Origin: Chiloscyllium plagiosum | Taxonomy: Eukaryota | Length of the DNA: 64,000 bases | Reading direction: 5' to 3' | NCBI RefSeq assembly: GCF_004010195.1 | Contig: NC_057719.1 | Coordinates: 31,732,883 to 31,796,882, forward strand | Shown: positions 5,343 through 63,227 of the stretch, piece after piece | Layout: every line of letters starts with the position of its first letter | Position numbering within the stretch: the stretch's first letter is position 1 | Notes under the pieces: generated by a model | The model's input: only the letters and a program-made list of their open reading frames with translations | Told to the model about the DNA's origin: nothing | Database searches by the model: none | Made by a program: the position numbers and the translations under genes

Positions 5343-5541
5343 GAATTAGAGAGCTGCTGGAAAAGCACAGTAGGTCAGGCAGCATCTGAGAAACCGGAAA
5401 ATCGGCATTTCAAGCAAGAGCCCTTCATCAAATTCCTGATTTTTGTGTTCCTCGGATGCTGCCTGACTTGTTGTGCTTTTCCAACAGCACTCTAATCTTG
5501 ACCCTAATCTCCAGCATCTGCAGTACCTAACTCTGCCTATG
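5343..5541. mobile_element. Fold-back PLE pLTR insert, family A
   Basis: Inverted arms (gctggaaaagcacagtaggtcaggcagcatc / gatgctgcctgacttgttgtgcttttccaac); 11-bp TSD ctgaaataaca at 5332-5342 and 5542-5552. Confidence 0.85.
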
Positions 5542-5754
5542 CTGAAATAACAAACTGACCCATAGGATGAACACATACATACAAAACTTTTGTCTTTAAA
5601 CATGGCTTGACTATGTGTATCTAACAAGAGAAAGGCTCAATAACTTACATCTTCAAAAATACATCAGATTCTGTGCATCACAGAAAGACAAAATCACCAA
5701 TGAAGCAAACTCTTCTAGCACTTACCAAGCATGCTAGTATTAATTAAAAATAGA

Positions 5755-6367
5755 AATGTAGAAGATAGGTGCAGGAGTAGGCCATTTGGCCATTTTGGCC
5801 AATCTCAGTATCCCATTCACAGCTTCTCCCCATACCCCTTGATATTTTTCGCCACAAGGGCGAAAAATTCATCCAGTTCCCTCATGAATATATCTAATGA
5901 ACTGATCCCAACAACTTTCTGTACGAGAGAATTCCACAGGTTTGCAACTCACTGAGTGAAGATATTTTTCCTCATCTTGGTCCTGAATGCCTTACCCTTT
6001 ATTCTTAGACTGTGACTCCTAGTTCTGGATTTCCAAACATCAGGAACATTCTTCCCGCATCCAGCCTGTCCAGTCCAATCAGGATTTTGTATGTTTCTAT
6101 GAGATCCTTCATTATTCTTCTAAATTCCAGCAAATACAAGCCCAGTCAACCCAGTCTTTCATCATATGTCAGTGCTGTCATCCTGGGAATCAATCTGGTA
6201 AACCTTTGCTGGACTCCCTCAATAGCAAGAATGTCCTTCCTCAGACTAGGAGACCAAAGCTGCACACAATGCTCAAGGTGTGGCCTCACCAAGGCCCTGT
6301 ATAACTGCAGCAAGACTTGCACTCCGCGAAGGACAAGCAAGTCCTAAGCCTTCTTCACCACCAAATC
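5755..6367 (-). mobile_element. CR1 LINE 3' fragment
   Basis: LLQLYRALVRPHLEHCVQLWSP..IEGVQQRFTRLIP (6146-6340); flanking aaaataga repeats at 5747-5754 and 6708-6715. Confidence 0.85.
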
Positions 6368-6700
6368 TAACCACCCAATGCCTGGAGGAGGAATGCCTCA
6401 TATTGTGACCCCTCAACCACATAGCATCAATGTTGACTTCACCAGTTTCCTTATCTCCCTTCCCCCCACCTCATCCCAGATCCAACCCTCCAACTGGACA
6501 CCATCCTCTTGAACTGTCATATCTGTCCATCTTTCTTCNNNNNNNCCCAACCTCACCCCTCCTATTTATCACTCAGACACCCCAACCCCACTCCAATGGG
6601 CGTATGCCCGAAATGTCGGATCTCCTGCTCCTTGGATGCTGCCTGACCTGCTGTGCTTTTCCAGCACCACGTTTTTCCACTCTGGTCCTCACTCTGATAC
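6368..6700 (+). mobile_element. PLE 3' end/pLTR, family A-like
   Basis: LEEE.LI..QPHSINVDFTSF-like C-terminus, then gcccgaaatgtc...gatgctgcctgacctgctgtgcttttccagcacc; ccaaatc repeated at 6361-6367 and 6701-6707. Confidence 0.75.
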
Positions 6701-6952
6701 CCAAATCAAAATAGACATTTTTGGTATGGGCATCTACCCAAGATGAAAGTTAGTTACATCCCCAGGGCTATGTCTTAAAGGGAGGAAGCTCATGCCAAGA
6801 AACTAAGGAAGCACCCAAAAGTTCCAATTCAGTGATGTTGTTAAAAGAGACATGAATACCCCAACATCCAACACAACAAGTGGGGAACTCTTGCTGATGA
6901 CTGTGAGTTGGTGTTGTCTACTGTGGGTAAGGATCCGCCACCTTGACAACAT

Positions 6953-60348: not shown

Positions 60349-60500
60349 AAATCATACAACACCAGGTTATAGGCCAACAGGTTTATTTGAAATCACAAGC
60401 TTTTGGACCAGACCCCCTGAATCTGATGAAGAAGCTACGTTCTGAAAGCTTGTGATTTCAAGTAAACCTGTTGGACTATCACCTGGAATTGTATGACTTG
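60349..60500. mobile_element. Fold-back PLE pLTR insert, family B-like
   Basis: Inverted arms tcatacaacaccaggttataggccaacaggtttatttgaaatcacaagc / gcttgtgatttcaagtaaacctgttggactatcacctggaattgtatga; core CTGATGA-agaa gctacg ttct-GAAA-GC-TT at 60423-60451. Confidence 0.8.
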
Positions 60501-61669
60501 TATTTTTCCCAAAGCATAGCCAACCTGCCTTTTTTACTTTTAAAAGTTGTTTATGAAAAGTCCAGGATTTTGGTCCAGTATTTTAGCTGCTAGGGATTTT
60601 TGCTCAATCCTGCAATGTCATGCTGCCATCTTAAAGGTATTGTGCCTTTCAGTGATCTGTGCAATAATACAACACCCCTCCCTCCTTCACCCTTTAAAAC
60701 ATAGGAAATATGTTCTGATGAATCTACACAAAGATGCACATCAATACATTATCTTTACACATTAAAATAGTACTTGGGTGGATCTACAATATGACCAGAC
60801 CTAGTACTTATCACGATTATCACAACATAACTGTGTGGTTTTACTCTGTGATGTACTATTTGTTGTTGTGGATGAATGTGTATCATGATATATAGACGTA
60901 TGGTTGCTATCTGTCATATTTCAGTATCAGAAAAATCCTTTATGTGATCGATGGATGGTCACATACAAATTGGATATGTCATCTGTTTTGTTGTAAGATT
61001 TGACCATCATTTTTGACAAATTTGAATGACTTGGGCAAGACACAATGTCATATTATCTTTATATGAATACCTGGGTTTGCATAAAGATCTTGAACTATAA
61101 TAGTTTGTCCTAAATTTGATTTTAGTTTGTTTAATGTTACAAATTTAACAGGAATTACTGCACTTCTAACAATATTTCCTTCTATGAAGAGCTTTTATGT
61201 GACTTGATGTACTAAAAGTCAGTAGAAGTGGAAAGTGCTTTATTAATATTATTTATTAAGTATGTAAGTTAGCTCGCTGAGCTGGAAGATTTGTTTTCAG
61301 ACTTTTTGTCACCATACTAGGTAACATCATCAGTGAGGGTCTCTGGTGAAGCACTGGTGGTATGTCCCGCCTCTCTGTTTATAGGTCTTGGTTTCTTAAG
61401 GTGAGTGATATAATTTCCGGTTCTTTTTTTCAAGGGAAGGTAGATCCTTCCTAGGACAGGCAAAACAAAGACATGCATGCGAATTCTTATAGGCATAGCA
61501 TTCTAACCAGAACTCCATCAATAAAAACGTATCAACTTAGACCCTATCTACCTTCCCTTGAAAAAAAGAACTTGAAATTACATTACCCACCTTAAGAAAC
61601 TAAGACCTATAAATAGAAAGGGAGGACATACCACTAGCACTTCACCAGAGAGTCTCACTGATAACGTTA

Positions 61670-61821
61670 GGCAAAAGTGAGGACTGCAGATGCTAGAGAT
61701 CAGAGTCTAGATTAGAGTAATGCTAGAAAAGCACAGCAGGTCAGGCAGCATCCGAGGAGCAGGAAAATCGCGTTTCGGGCAAAAGCCCTTCATCTGGATT
61801 TCCAGCACCACTCTAATCTTG
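61670..61821. mobile_element. Fold-back PLE pLTR insert, family A, nested
   Basis: aaagtgaggactgcagatgc...; 15-bp imperfect TSD tcactgataacgtta (61655-61669) / tcactgatgatgtta (61822-61836). Confidence 0.85.
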
Positions 61822-61861
61822 TCACTGATGATGTTACCTAGTACGGTGACGAAATGTCTGA
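61822..61861 (+). ncRNA. Minimal hammerhead ribozyme motif (family C)
   Basis: tca-CTGATGA-t-GTTACC tagtac GGTGAC-GAAA-TG-TC-tga. Confidence 0.65.
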
Positions 61862-63227
61862 AAACAAACCTTCAAGCTCAGCGAACTAACATGCATACTT
61901 ATCATCAACCCAAGCTACAAATCTTATCAAAAATTGCTAATATTATTTATTAATTAGGGTTTTAATTGTCCAAAAACACTAGATCTATGCATATTGGTTC
62001 ATTTTTCAACACTAATCAAAACATCTTCTGCATCGTTCAGCAGAGGAGAAGGTGAGGAAGGAAAACAATCAAGTCTTTTAGACTTTCAGCCTCATGTCAT
62101 TTTTGGTTTGCTTTTCCATAGATGACAGTCTCATAACTGTCACTGTTTGACTCAAGAGTTTTAATATTTTCAACTTGAGTTGACTGAAAAATGTTGAAAG
62201 AGGAACACATTTTCCATATGCTTGCTGAATCATGTTCTGATTGTCCTCCTAGCCTTTGGATGCCAATTATTGGCAGCATTGTTATGTGAGTGAAGGAGTC
62301 AATTTAATGAACCAGTTATTAGTCTGGAGGGAAACATGAAATGTCGTGAATAAAACAGCTTGCTGAGGAAGCAATTGAAAGAACCCATTTCCAAAGCAGA
62401 TGAATTAAGCTGTGCAGGAAGACATTATTTCGGAGCTATGATAAAGTTACATGAACTAAATGTGCAATGATGGTGAAAAAGAGAAATAGGTGAAGCTGAA
62501 AATATGAAAACTTAACAAGGTCTGTACCGAAATTGAATTTCAGGGTTGAAGTTAAATTGCATTTGCTGGCATCACAATCAAACACTGCACAAAACAAATA
62601 ATCCTACCAAAGCTTGTTATAATGAATAAATGTAAGCTGTGGAAGCTACTCAATAGTACTGTTACATTATTTGAAATTCTGAATATCTGCACTGTAAACT
62701 ATTCTAAATTATTTTGGTAAAATGTTAATCTTTGTTCCTACAGTATTCATTGTTAATAGTTTTTAACTGTTTCCTTCATGCCCCATTTGTGGTTGTGTCA
62801 TTTCAGGTTGTAAAATAATGATATCTTGTCCATTATCATTAGAAAATAAATAATTATCACATTTATGGGTGAACTTCCATTGGGTTTCTCCTGTTTGCTT
62901 GGCCTAACTTTGCCAGAGGACATGGATAAACCATGGAAAATGGCAAGCATTTTTCAGGATTTTCTACAATCTTTTACCTCGGTAACCAAGAAGGAGTAAG
63001 AAATATTTCGCCACTTATCGGATTTCCAGTTCATTACGTTTCTCACTATCTGTGTTAAGGGAATAGTTCTTTATGCCTTTTATAATTTCAACATCAAATT
63101 AGCTCTCTGCCAATATTTTTGTACCAATGCCTTTTCATCTTTGTTAGTTTGTTGAGTTTATCAATTACCCCCTCACATCTCCTCCTTAAATATCTGTCAT
63201 TTTTTTTGTCTCTTCTTCCAGTGTCAT

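Follow-up and report, generated by a model that had tools for sequence, protein, structure and literature searches.

Short inserts with a tail at one end

The window, a stretch of 64,000 nucleotides of the genome of Chiloscyllium plagiosum, contains short inserts whose arms are the 3′ ends of three families (A, B and C) of Penelope-like elements (PLEs). Eight of them had been singled out in the initial annotation. They are listed here with the strand of each arm and, where assigned, its start relative to an initiator-like A (+1) in the pLTR.

5343-5538: family A fold-back; tail-less arm 5343-5430 (-); tail-bearing arm about 5432-5538 (+), without hammerhead core, tail about 5497-5538; TSD 5329-5342 / 5539-5552 (11 nt exact, 14 with one mismatch)
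9817-10034: family A fold-back; tail-bearing arm 9817-9944 (-, start +1), tail 9817-9850; tail-less arm 9945-10034 (+, start +5); TSD 9804-9816 / 10035-10047 (13 exact)
16483-16692: family A fold-back with non-nested arms; tail-less arm 16483-16577 (-, start -1/+1); tail-bearing arm 16578-16692 (+, start +14), tail 16660-16692; TSD 16470-16482 / 16693-16705 (13 exact)
19124-19322: family C insert; tail-less arm about 19124-19272 (-), extending beyond a TATA-like box; tail-only piece about 19273-19322 (+); overlap about 10 nt; TSD 19112-19123 / 19323-19334 (12 exact)
29329-29463: family B insert; tail-less arm 29329-29418 (-, start +1, 4-5 nt microhomology); tail-only piece up to 29463 (+) that contains a short duplication; TSD 29317-29328 / 29464-29475 (12 exact)
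31560-31757: family B fold-back; tail-bearing arm 31560-31686 (-, start +2), with the tail at 31560-31596; tail-less arm about 31694-31757 (+, start +29/+30), after a short filler; TSD 31548-31559 / 31758-31769 (9 exact, 12 with one mismatch)
61260-61937: family C fold-back; tail-less arm 61260-61445 (-); tail-bearing arm about 61446-61937 (+), split by a nested family A insert, tail 61899-61937; TSD 61244-61259 / 61938-61953 (16 exact)
61670-61821: family A insert inside the hammerhead of the 61260 insert; tail-bearing arm 61670-61798 (-, start +3); tail-less arm about 22 nt (+); TSD 61655-61669 / 61822-61836 (15 with two mismatches)

These miniature fold-back inserts are real, and they are stub insertions of ordinary PLEs. 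All eight TSDs that had been claimed are present, at 9-16 bp, each with a length-minus-mismatch score of at least 9; among random position pairs, a score of 9 was reached in 2 of 1500 cases and a score of 11 in 0 of 1500. The insert ends were partly placed using the TSDs, and they coincide with the ends of family homology. Anchored alignment recovered the four unpaired tails as originally described (inserts 9817, 16483, 31560 and 61260). It also placed a tail at exactly one end of two head-to-head pieces in all eight inserts, a count biased by the fact that inserts of this kind had been picked beforehand. Judged by eye in this alignment, tails measure 33-34 nt in subfamily A1, about 38-42 in A2, 34-40 in B and 35-39 in C.

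The description of the inserts as two inverted pLTR ends holds, with long paired arms, for five of the eight (5343, 9817, 16483, 31560 and 61260). It does not extend to 61670, with its very short second arm, nor to 19124 and 29329, which are not the fold-back palindromes they were taken for, since each joins an inverted tail-less arm to a tail-bearing piece that is almost the tail alone. The reported size range reaches about 680 bp only when the nested insert is counted within the 678 bp of the 61260 insert. The tail-less end is fixed per family to within about 2-4 nt, and the inner junction lies near the hammerhead in families A and B, not in family C.

Longer copies and related features

Further copies of the same families, and one other palindrome, are found in the window.

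32322-35094 (-): long family B insert of 2.8 kb; tail at its 32322 end and a tail-less arm in inverted orientation
48080-49175 (+): long family A copy; N-terminal fragment of the RT protein 48080-48337, gap 48339-48860, 3′ UTR and pLTR 48861-49175
49047 to 49176: family A pLTR landmarks; +1 at 49047 (initiator-like A), hammerhead cleavage predicted after 49078, ends at about 49140-49142 (tail-less) and 49175-49176 (full)
57347-57526: young family A fold-back, absent from the initial annotation; 56-nt arms, 100% complementary, starts +2 and +1
60342-60506: palindrome with a tail on neither side and no TSD

The inverted arm of the long family B insert (34575-35096) matches 32355-32919 at 78% identity by BLAST, and its arms share 83-91% identity with the short family B inserts (29329, 31560). 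Its TSD is weak (12 nt, two mismatches). Between the arms lies a coding region (33055-34278) for a decayed RT, a zinc-linker and a GIY-YIG domain, which protein P0008 matches across all three parts (tblastn, E 6e-74). The GIY-YIG domain reached a Pfam E-value of 0.0013, below the Pfam cutoff; only one of the seven window peptides gave a meaningful Pfam match. A zinc-finger-like Cys motif ahead of GIY-YIG (33059-33361) also occurs in P0007 and P0008, and a linker in this position has been described for Neptune and Nematis (PMC8557442). By the linker between RT and GIY-YIG, family B appears to be Neptune-type, with Nematis also possible.

Because this 2.8-kb coding insert has the same anatomy of one tail and inverted arms, the short inserts are not MITEs. 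The inserts are short, palindromic, abundant and TSD-flanked, as DNA-transposon MITEs with terminal inverted repeats would be, but their TSDs of 9-16 bp, their asymmetric termini, the two inserts of eight that are not palindromic, the many single-arm copies and arms of the same kind as the 3′ end of an RT/GIY-YIG element leave that reading with a negligible probability. For family B it is already refuted. The listed inserts show neither symmetric termini nor a fixed TSD length, and the homology of the arms to an RT/GIY-YIG element is present in family B, in keeping with the PLE reading.

In the long family A copy, positions 48080-48331 share 76-80% identity with the RT proteins P0001 and P0003 on the same strand as the pLTR, with a gap of 522 N between fragment and pLTR. 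No tail-encoded N-terminus was seen in P0001-P0005, predictions that look truncated. The 57347 fold-back carries an extra 29-nt piece between its arms, and its left end is lost in an N gap. In family C, a 42-residue read-through (61439-61564) may resemble a PLE endonuclease end; a protein search with it gave no homologue candidate.

Our own motif scan found minimal hammerhead cores, whose cleavage is predicted, in families A, B and C and in an insert at 8692. Rfam returned no hammerhead match and only weak hairpin matches. A pattern scan of metagenomes yielded four loci, three matching the window over 24-25 nt only and one without a BLAST match; one that was inspected reads as bacterial coding DNA, and all four were taken as chance.

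Ends and junctions across contigs

The family A reference was compared with three public DNA contig sets, with 107,017-109,606 records aligned per run. Copy ends pile up at three places. The full end lies at 49175/49176 (at least 596 and at least 1054 contigs, X1) and the tail-less end at 49132/49136 (at least 782 and at least 549, X1), with majority letters running on to about 49140. On the 5′ side, ends accumulate at 49047 (at least 548, 448 and 571 contigs in the three runs), where a letter agreement of 0.31 indicates mixed flanks. Together with the RT/GIY-YIG match of the arms, the TSDs of 9-16 bp and the asymmetric termini, the two 3′ pile-ups bear out the proposal of retrotransposition products with two fixed cDNA starts. 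A PLE origin with two start sites is very probable.

The inner junction does vary, as had been stated: all nine window junctions differ (the eight listed inserts and 57347). A shared identical junction was sought among the family A contigs, and no opposite-strand joint is dominant among the best 15 of 385 joints. Five of these 15 are opposite-strand, the largest occurring in 6-10 contigs. They include 49048|49142, in which +2 is fused to a tail-only arm. The tail-to-tail joint 49136|49175 was found in at least 7 (X1) and at least 10 (X10) contigs, and 49048|49080 in at least 2 contigs at a depth of 286.5, where long unique contigs have 10-37. These counts may miss some symmetric or shared junctions, as contigs break at palindromes, identical junctions collapse and the numbers are lower bounds. 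The two arms of an insert are no more similar to one another than to arms of other copies, a weak test with copies 15-25% diverged.

Fixed outer ends without a dominant inner junction make a single replicating palindromic family unlikely. More broadly, a few palindromic or 130-nt masters might be transcribed and remobilised in trans as a non-autonomous ribozyme-bearing class. Such a class would fit the very high abundance (more than 107,000 contigs per run) and recurring junctions such as 49048|49080, and it has published counterparts: Chlamys MRC1 and the retrozymes are non-autonomous PLE derivatives, and pLTRs act in trans. We nonetheless consider it improbable, because the nine window junctions all differ and no joint among the best 15 of 385 exceeds 10 contigs, the same anatomy recurs in three unrelated families and in the 2.8-kb coding copy, and the stubs begin at +1, without the upstream TATA region described below. 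A retrozyme-like origin is further opposed by the lack of tandem hammerhead units among the window copies. The inserts had been read as either extreme truncations or a non-autonomous class. As worded neither fits, as no junction is dominant and the 5′ ends are not random.

A fixed 5′ boundary ahead of the hammerhead

In five of the six A/B inserts, one arm ends within -1 to +3 of the initiator-like A just ahead of the hammerhead, and no short A/B arm extends past -1. The exception is 5343, with a start at +6 and a linker matching +1 to +6; its tail-bearing arm starts at +33, at the predicted ribozyme cut. Besides the two 3′ ends, families A and B thus have a third recurrent end just ahead of the hammerhead, contrary to a reading of the 5′ ends as random truncations. 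A literature search returned no report of an A/B-type arm boundary at an initiator-like A before a hammerhead, or of the canonical TATA at -30 that accompanies it in family B.

34973-35017 (+): promoter-like layout in family B; TATAAAT at -30 (34973) and an initiator-like A at +1 (35003), followed by the hammerhead core, which begins at 35011

Scored with the TATA and initiator consensus motifs, the canonical pair of TATA at -30 and initiator at +1 in family B has a frequency of 2e-5 over 126,016 window positions. The +1 of family A matches YYANWYY, a motif at 1.3% of window positions; this family has no canonical TATA, and the loose TATA motif that was scored had been picked after sight. Transcription starts within the pLTR have been published for the Penelope element of D. 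virilis, whose promoter is internal and TATA-less, and for a Chlamys element. Both family C inserts continue beyond their TATA-like box, so a run-off at the transcript start would not apply to these two of the eight.

The boundary can be explained differently, through two-site priming on a long RNA, at its 3′ pLTR, with the 5′ pile-up reflecting an RT stall, RNA processing or a protein footprint at helix I. The boundary falls on the first base of hammerhead helix I in family A and very close to it in B. The predicted ribozyme cut also coincides with some ends (the tail-bearing arm of 5343 and joint 49048|49080), and a D. virilis intron end has been mapped to the 5′ end of helix I. On the other hand, an RT approaching from the 3′ side should stall before the core, not after it. 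There is no AG acceptor ahead of +1 in A or B and, given the agreement of 0.31, no constant upstream exon is seen; the family B TATA at -30 is left unexplained. We regard this alternative as unlikely, though the most serious of those considered here. Two narrower candidates were rejected: a splice acceptor at +1, for the same lack of AG and upstream exon, and hammerhead cleavage as the main 5′ boundary, as most ends include the core and the cut site forms a minor cluster.

In all three DNA runs, the majority letter preceding the +1 of family A is G. It is possible that this G is a cap signature. A subfamily trait and a letter of the partner arm are other possible sources, and 16483 and 57347 lack it. 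Letters G between joints were discarded as cap evidence: one could be templated by the partner arm and one does not precede +1.

A model of twin priming and run-off

Collectively, these observations suggest that the enzyme begins copying twice on one RNA, often running off the RNA's 5′ end. We postulate that each insert is made afresh at integration by an endonuclease-bearing PLE, which for family B would be Neptune-type. The GIY-YIG domain would nick both target strands 9-16 nt apart, a stagger taken from the TSD lengths. One target 3′ end would prime at a distal site, giving the full end, and the other at a proximal site about 33-42 nt upstream, giving the tail-less end. As in L1 twin priming, a single sense RNA would serve both primings, but at fixed sites. 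A distal cDNA halting at the proximal one would leave a tail-only piece (19124, 29329), and one copying beyond it would produce overlapping arms. The two cDNA 3′ ends would then fuse head to head via microhomology or filler, a manner of joining that makes every junction unique.

For families A and B, the template would usually be the 5′ end of a transcript whose first nucleotide is the first base of helix I, inside the pLTR. Priming at the 5′-proximal signal would yield a strong-stop-like run-off cDNA of 95-130 nt. Run-off at the transcript 5′ end would account for the third fixed boundary and for the great abundance of stubs, which, without the upstream TATA region, are probably dead ends. 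On the sequence evidence, the joint claim of twin priming on one RNA, head-to-head joining and 5′ run-off seems to us to have somewhat better than even prospects. More tentatively, at a little under even chances, most short Penelope stubs in this genome would be strong-stop-like run-off cDNAs, primed at the 5′-proximal copy of the signal, and fold-backs would arise from the two protomers of a dimer priming at the two fixed start sites of one RNA. The tail-less 60342-60506 palindrome and the 49136|49175 joint conflict with the two-site model.

In three of the eight inserts (16483, 19124, 29329) each arm carries sequence absent from the other, so both arms needed the RNA. Later central deletions could also produce such non-nested arms; barring these, fold-back of a single sense cDNA fails for all three and was rejected. 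Trimming of either arm can yield them as well if antisense RNA primes itself into a hairpin and the endonuclease removes the tail from one arm at resolution. Self-priming of this kind was proposed for palindromic head-to-head PLE junctions by Arkhipova et al. 2013 (PMC3846280), with trimming at resolution by Craig et al. 2021 (PMC8557442), and short palindromic or microhomologous centres are observed here. Yet it predicts no sense-strand initiator at the junction hot spot, and in the in vitro work of Frangieh et al. 2024 (PMC11167929) both nicked strands prime on sense RNA, at two sites corresponding to the tail ends. We hold this route to be very doubtful.

Comparison with known systems

Inverted pLTRs, tails, opposite-strand hammerhead pairs and two RT start sites have all been published, so the finding as first worded is not new. 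The nearest system in vitro is the Anolis Poseidon element PAc (PMC11167929). As described in the main text of that paper, PAc places the tail between two RT start sites, cuts and extends both strands, favours AT-rich targets and has a pLTR hammerhead, and a 5′-truncated template gave a shorter product, a counterpart of the 5′ run-off proposed here. In the same main text, the two sites are not connected with the pair of nicks made in a single insertion, with inverted arms or with short genomic run-off inserts.

Published insertions of EN+ PLEs (PMC3846280, PMC8557442) share the head-to-head, inverted, 5′-truncated copy, the tail of 30-40 bp at one end and an RT with C-terminal GIY-YIG. They too are flanked by TSDs, of 8-10 bp in the rotifer examples. 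Unlike them, most of our inserts are 135-220 bp as a whole and have no ORF, and the start of one arm is usually a fixed base ahead of the hammerhead. The origin of PLE tandem and inverted structures was called undefined by Craig et al. 2021 (PMC8557442). Cervera and De la Pena 2014 (PMC4209133) described opposite-strand hammerhead pairs 100-700 bp apart in Schistosoma and interpreted single motifs as truncated PLEs. Those motifs resemble ours in their minimal type I hammerhead with palindromic helix III. Cleavage and circular templates were proposed there, whereas here most 5′ ends precede the core rather than fall at the cut. Non-LTR retrozymes (Li, Clavereau, Pollet 2026, 10.64898/2026.07.22.740005) are likewise non-coding, hammerhead-bearing and pLTR-related. 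By definition they consist of direct tandem repeats in which every unit has its own hammerhead, whereas the inserts here are single or head to head.

Two further processes serve as analogies and not as classes to which the inserts belong. In L1 twin priming, two target 3′ ends use one RNA, resulting in an inverted 5′ piece inside the TSD; here the second site is fixed, arms can overlap and there is no poly(A). In the minus-strand strong-stop of LTR elements, priming near the RNA 5′ end gives a short cDNA of fixed length; here the primer would be target DNA, not a tRNA. A literature search of titles and abstracts found nothing relevant joining Penelope with twin priming and inverted structures, or with strong-stop.

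The minimal inserts form a natural data set, in which 200 bp span both outer ends and both 5′ ends. Predictions for the existing in vitro system and for CAGE follow from the non-nested arms and the fixed +1. If the run-off and twin-priming reading is true, it would explain the one-sided tail, the head-to-head inverted pLTRs and why animal genomes contain so many solo hammerheads. In that case pLTRs could form through template jumps from the run-off end, and PLE transcription starts would be readable from genome sequence alone. Such palindromes can also be mistaken for MITEs or for microRNA hairpins, and two of the inserts gave sub-threshold microRNA matches in Rfam.

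Short Penelope-like insertions in the window

The eight short inserts are real and belong to a well-described kind of Penelope-like element (PLE). They represent three families, A, B and C, whose terminal repeat (pLTR) carries a predicted hammerhead. Each consists of two pieces placed head to head, with the tail, an unpaired stretch at the full end that is absent from the tail-less arm, confined to one end.

Short PLE inserts, named by window start, with family and target-site duplication (TSD)
5343, family A, TSD 11 exact (14 with one mismatch)
9817, family A, TSD 13
16483, family A, TSD 13
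19124, family C, TSD 12
29329, family B, TSD 12
31560, family B, TSD 9 exact (12 with one mismatch)
61260, family C, TSD 16
61670, family A, TSD 15 with two mismatches

TSD comparison recovered the duplications claimed by the initial annotation at all eight inserts, each scoring at least 9, a level at which 2 of 1500 random pairs were found (0 of 1500 at 11). The four tails it gave were also correct. Five of the eight have the long paired arms of an extensive fold-back. In 19124 and 29329 the second piece is barely more than the tail, and 61670, which is nested within the hammerhead of 61260, has a second arm about 22 nt long. A DNA-transposon MITE origin is ruled out, since TSD length varies and the ends are asymmetric. 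At the full ends of 16483, 5343, 9817 and 61670, the first 1-4 TSD letters resemble, by eye only, the majority letters found in contigs just beyond that end, a hint that target and RNA may pair briefly when cDNA synthesis is primed. The window itself is animal DNA of 40% G+C and contains many decayed retroelement frames; two of its peptides have their nearest named proteins in Chiloscyllium punctatum and a stingray, which suggests a shark-like source.

Relation to coding elements and to published PLEs

The homology of the arms to a full RT/GIY-YIG element, on which the retroelement reading depended, was found for family B, whose arms match both ends of one long insert:

32322-35094, minus strand, 2.8-kb family B insert with decayed RT, cysteine linker and GIY-YIG domain

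This insert matched the protein P0008 (tblastn E 6e-74), and its GIY-YIG domain gave a sub-cutoff Pfam match (E 0.0013). Only a weak TSD flanks it, 12 nt with 2 mismatches and inside the null range. One of its ends carries the tail and the opposite end an inverted tail-less arm, so the short inserts form the small end of a continuum. A 60-nt pLTR piece (33402-33461, 96.7% identical to 32417-32476) splits its ORF between linker and endonuclease, beginning in the TATA region and terminating within the hammerhead, suggesting a template switch. In family A, a fragment with 76-80% identity to RT proteins precedes the 3' end, the two being separated by a 522-N gap. For family C, a peptide search for a coding link yielded no homologue. 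Our motif scan found minimal hammerhead cores in all three families; Rfam, which does not model minimal cores, returned no hammerhead match.

Much of this architecture is known. Arkhipova et al. 2013 (PMC3846280) and Craig et al. 2021 (PMC8557442) describe inverted pLTRs with a tail of 30-40 bp on one side only and TSDs of 8-10 bp. Two minimal hammerheads on opposite strands, separated by 100-700 bp, are interpreted as truncated PLEs by Cervera and De la Pena 2014 (PMC4209133). A curation guide treats inverted pLTRs and short extensions as routine (PMC8969392), and retrozymes are direct tandem repeats (10.64898/2026.07.22.740005). The two fixed cDNA start points proposed earlier are correct and already published, as two RT sites bracketing the tail (PMC11167929). 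Searches for Penelope with twin priming or strong-stop retrieved only unrelated literature, subscription papers and repeat databases being outside their scope. The remaining value lies in a fixed point, +1, with promoter-like motifs, and in non-nested arms, which yield a specific, testable model for the origin of inverted pLTRs.

A third fixed point with promoter-like motifs

The position +1 is an initiator-like A before the hammerhead (49047 in family A, 35003 in family B). In five of the six family A and B inserts, an arm begins within -1 to +3 (9817 +1, 16483 -1/+1, 61670 +3, 29329 +1, 31560 +2). The sixth, 5343, begins at +6; its linker matches +1 to +6, and its partner arm runs from +33. 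No short A or B arm extending upstream of -1 was found. Two further inserts lie outside the listed set:

57347-57526, young family A fold-back, arms starting at +1 and +2
8692-8795, 104 bp single-arm insert of a fourth hammerhead family, exact 10-bp TSD (8682-8691 / 8796-8805)

The arms of the former are 100% complementary, with an extra 29-nt central piece forming a three-part junction, and it adjoins an assembly gap. The minus-strand 5' end of the latter lies 6 nt upstream of the core and starts GG.

The +1 marks the front of hammerhead helix I; the predicted cut falls elsewhere, after +32. Consensus promoter motifs were used for scoring. Family B has a canonical TATA at -30 and an initiator match at +1, a pair with a frequency of 2e-5 among 126,016 window positions. 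The family A +1 fits YYANWYY (1.3% background), and its -31 motif is non-canonical and was chosen post hoc. A splice acceptor-like pyrimidine run ending TTAG (49015-49025), 21 nt upstream of the family A +1, overlaps the TATA-like position. In family C, TATAAA stands 50 nt upstream of the core in 3/3 arms, and both inserts of this family, 19124 and 61260, extend past it.

Contig survey of family A

A single-arm family A copy (48861-49260) was compared at 80% likeness with three DNA contig sets under two species labels, chosen from 24 listed runs, aligning 107,017-109,606 contig records per set. The 18 rows listed out of 1,219 for loose ends show clusters around 49175/49176, the full end, with at least 596 and 1054 contigs in set X1, and around 49132/49136, the tail-less end, with at least 782 and 549. 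For the survey as a whole, palindromes break contigs and identical junctions merge, counts are lower bounds, depth is no measure of copy number, and the best-matching set may stem from the source of the window itself. At 49132/49136 other subfamilies depart from the reference and extend to ~49140. One 5' cluster appeared among these rows, at 49047, with 548, 448 and 571 contigs in the three sets and a letter agreement of 0.31. The preceding letter is by majority G in 3/3 sets, despite AT-rich flanks and the exclusion of C by construction. Such a G can derive from the mRNA cap, which is one reading; a subfamily variant is another.

Opposite-strand joints made up 5 of the 15 listed among 385, the largest in 6-10 contigs; one listed joint, from +2 to a tail-only arm, resembles 29329. 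The shared inner junction that would mark a replicating non-autonomous family did not emerge: none dominated among these 15 joints, and 9/9 window junctions differ. A joint of the tail-less end (49136) to the full end (49175), on opposite strands (7 contigs in X1, 10 in X10), may reflect arrays of fold-back units.

A model for inverted pLTRs

For an anole Poseidon, Frangieh et al. 2024 (PMC11167929) show that both target strands are cut and extended, that RT initiates internally on the RNA, at two positions on either side of the tail, and that truncating the RNA at its 5' end gives a shorter product; they predict that the protein forms a dimer. Both D. virilis Penelope (PMC2377424) and a Chlamys element (PMC8557442) begin transcription inside the upstream pLTR. 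From these start sites and pLTR-internal transcription we infer that the mRNA would bear start sites at the 3' end and again close to the 5' end. A run-off cDNA of 95-130 nt would result from priming at the latter. If the two target nicks primed at separate sites of a single RNA, the insert would consist, between its TSDs, of an inverted tail-less arm followed by a tail-bearing arm, and its junction would be unique.

In 16483, 19124 and 29329, each arm has sequence missing from the other, and fold-back of one sense cDNA cannot yield such non-nested arms. Antisense self-priming with trimming can (PMC3846280 and PMC8557442), as can later central deletions. Exactly one tail occurs in 9/9 TSD-bounded head-to-head inserts, which suggests coupling, though the initial annotation had selected for such inserts. 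The palindrome 60342-60506, an old one of a B-related subfamily, breaks this rule, with no tail visible on either side and no TSD. Also counting against the model are the joint of 49136 to 49175 described above, of tail-to-tail type and in 7 and 10 contigs among the joints listed, 5' ends that in some cases coincide with the ribozyme cut, and partner arms, which were not found as mutual nearest matches. The Drosophila Penelope promoter, which is internal and TATA-less (PMC2377424), counts against the run-off reading. We give the combination of run-off and twin priming slightly less than an even chance of holding.

Elsewhere in the window, an inverted pair of a LINE-like 3' region (52022-54352; 562 nt, 87%) encloses a single-arm family A copy (53581-53696).
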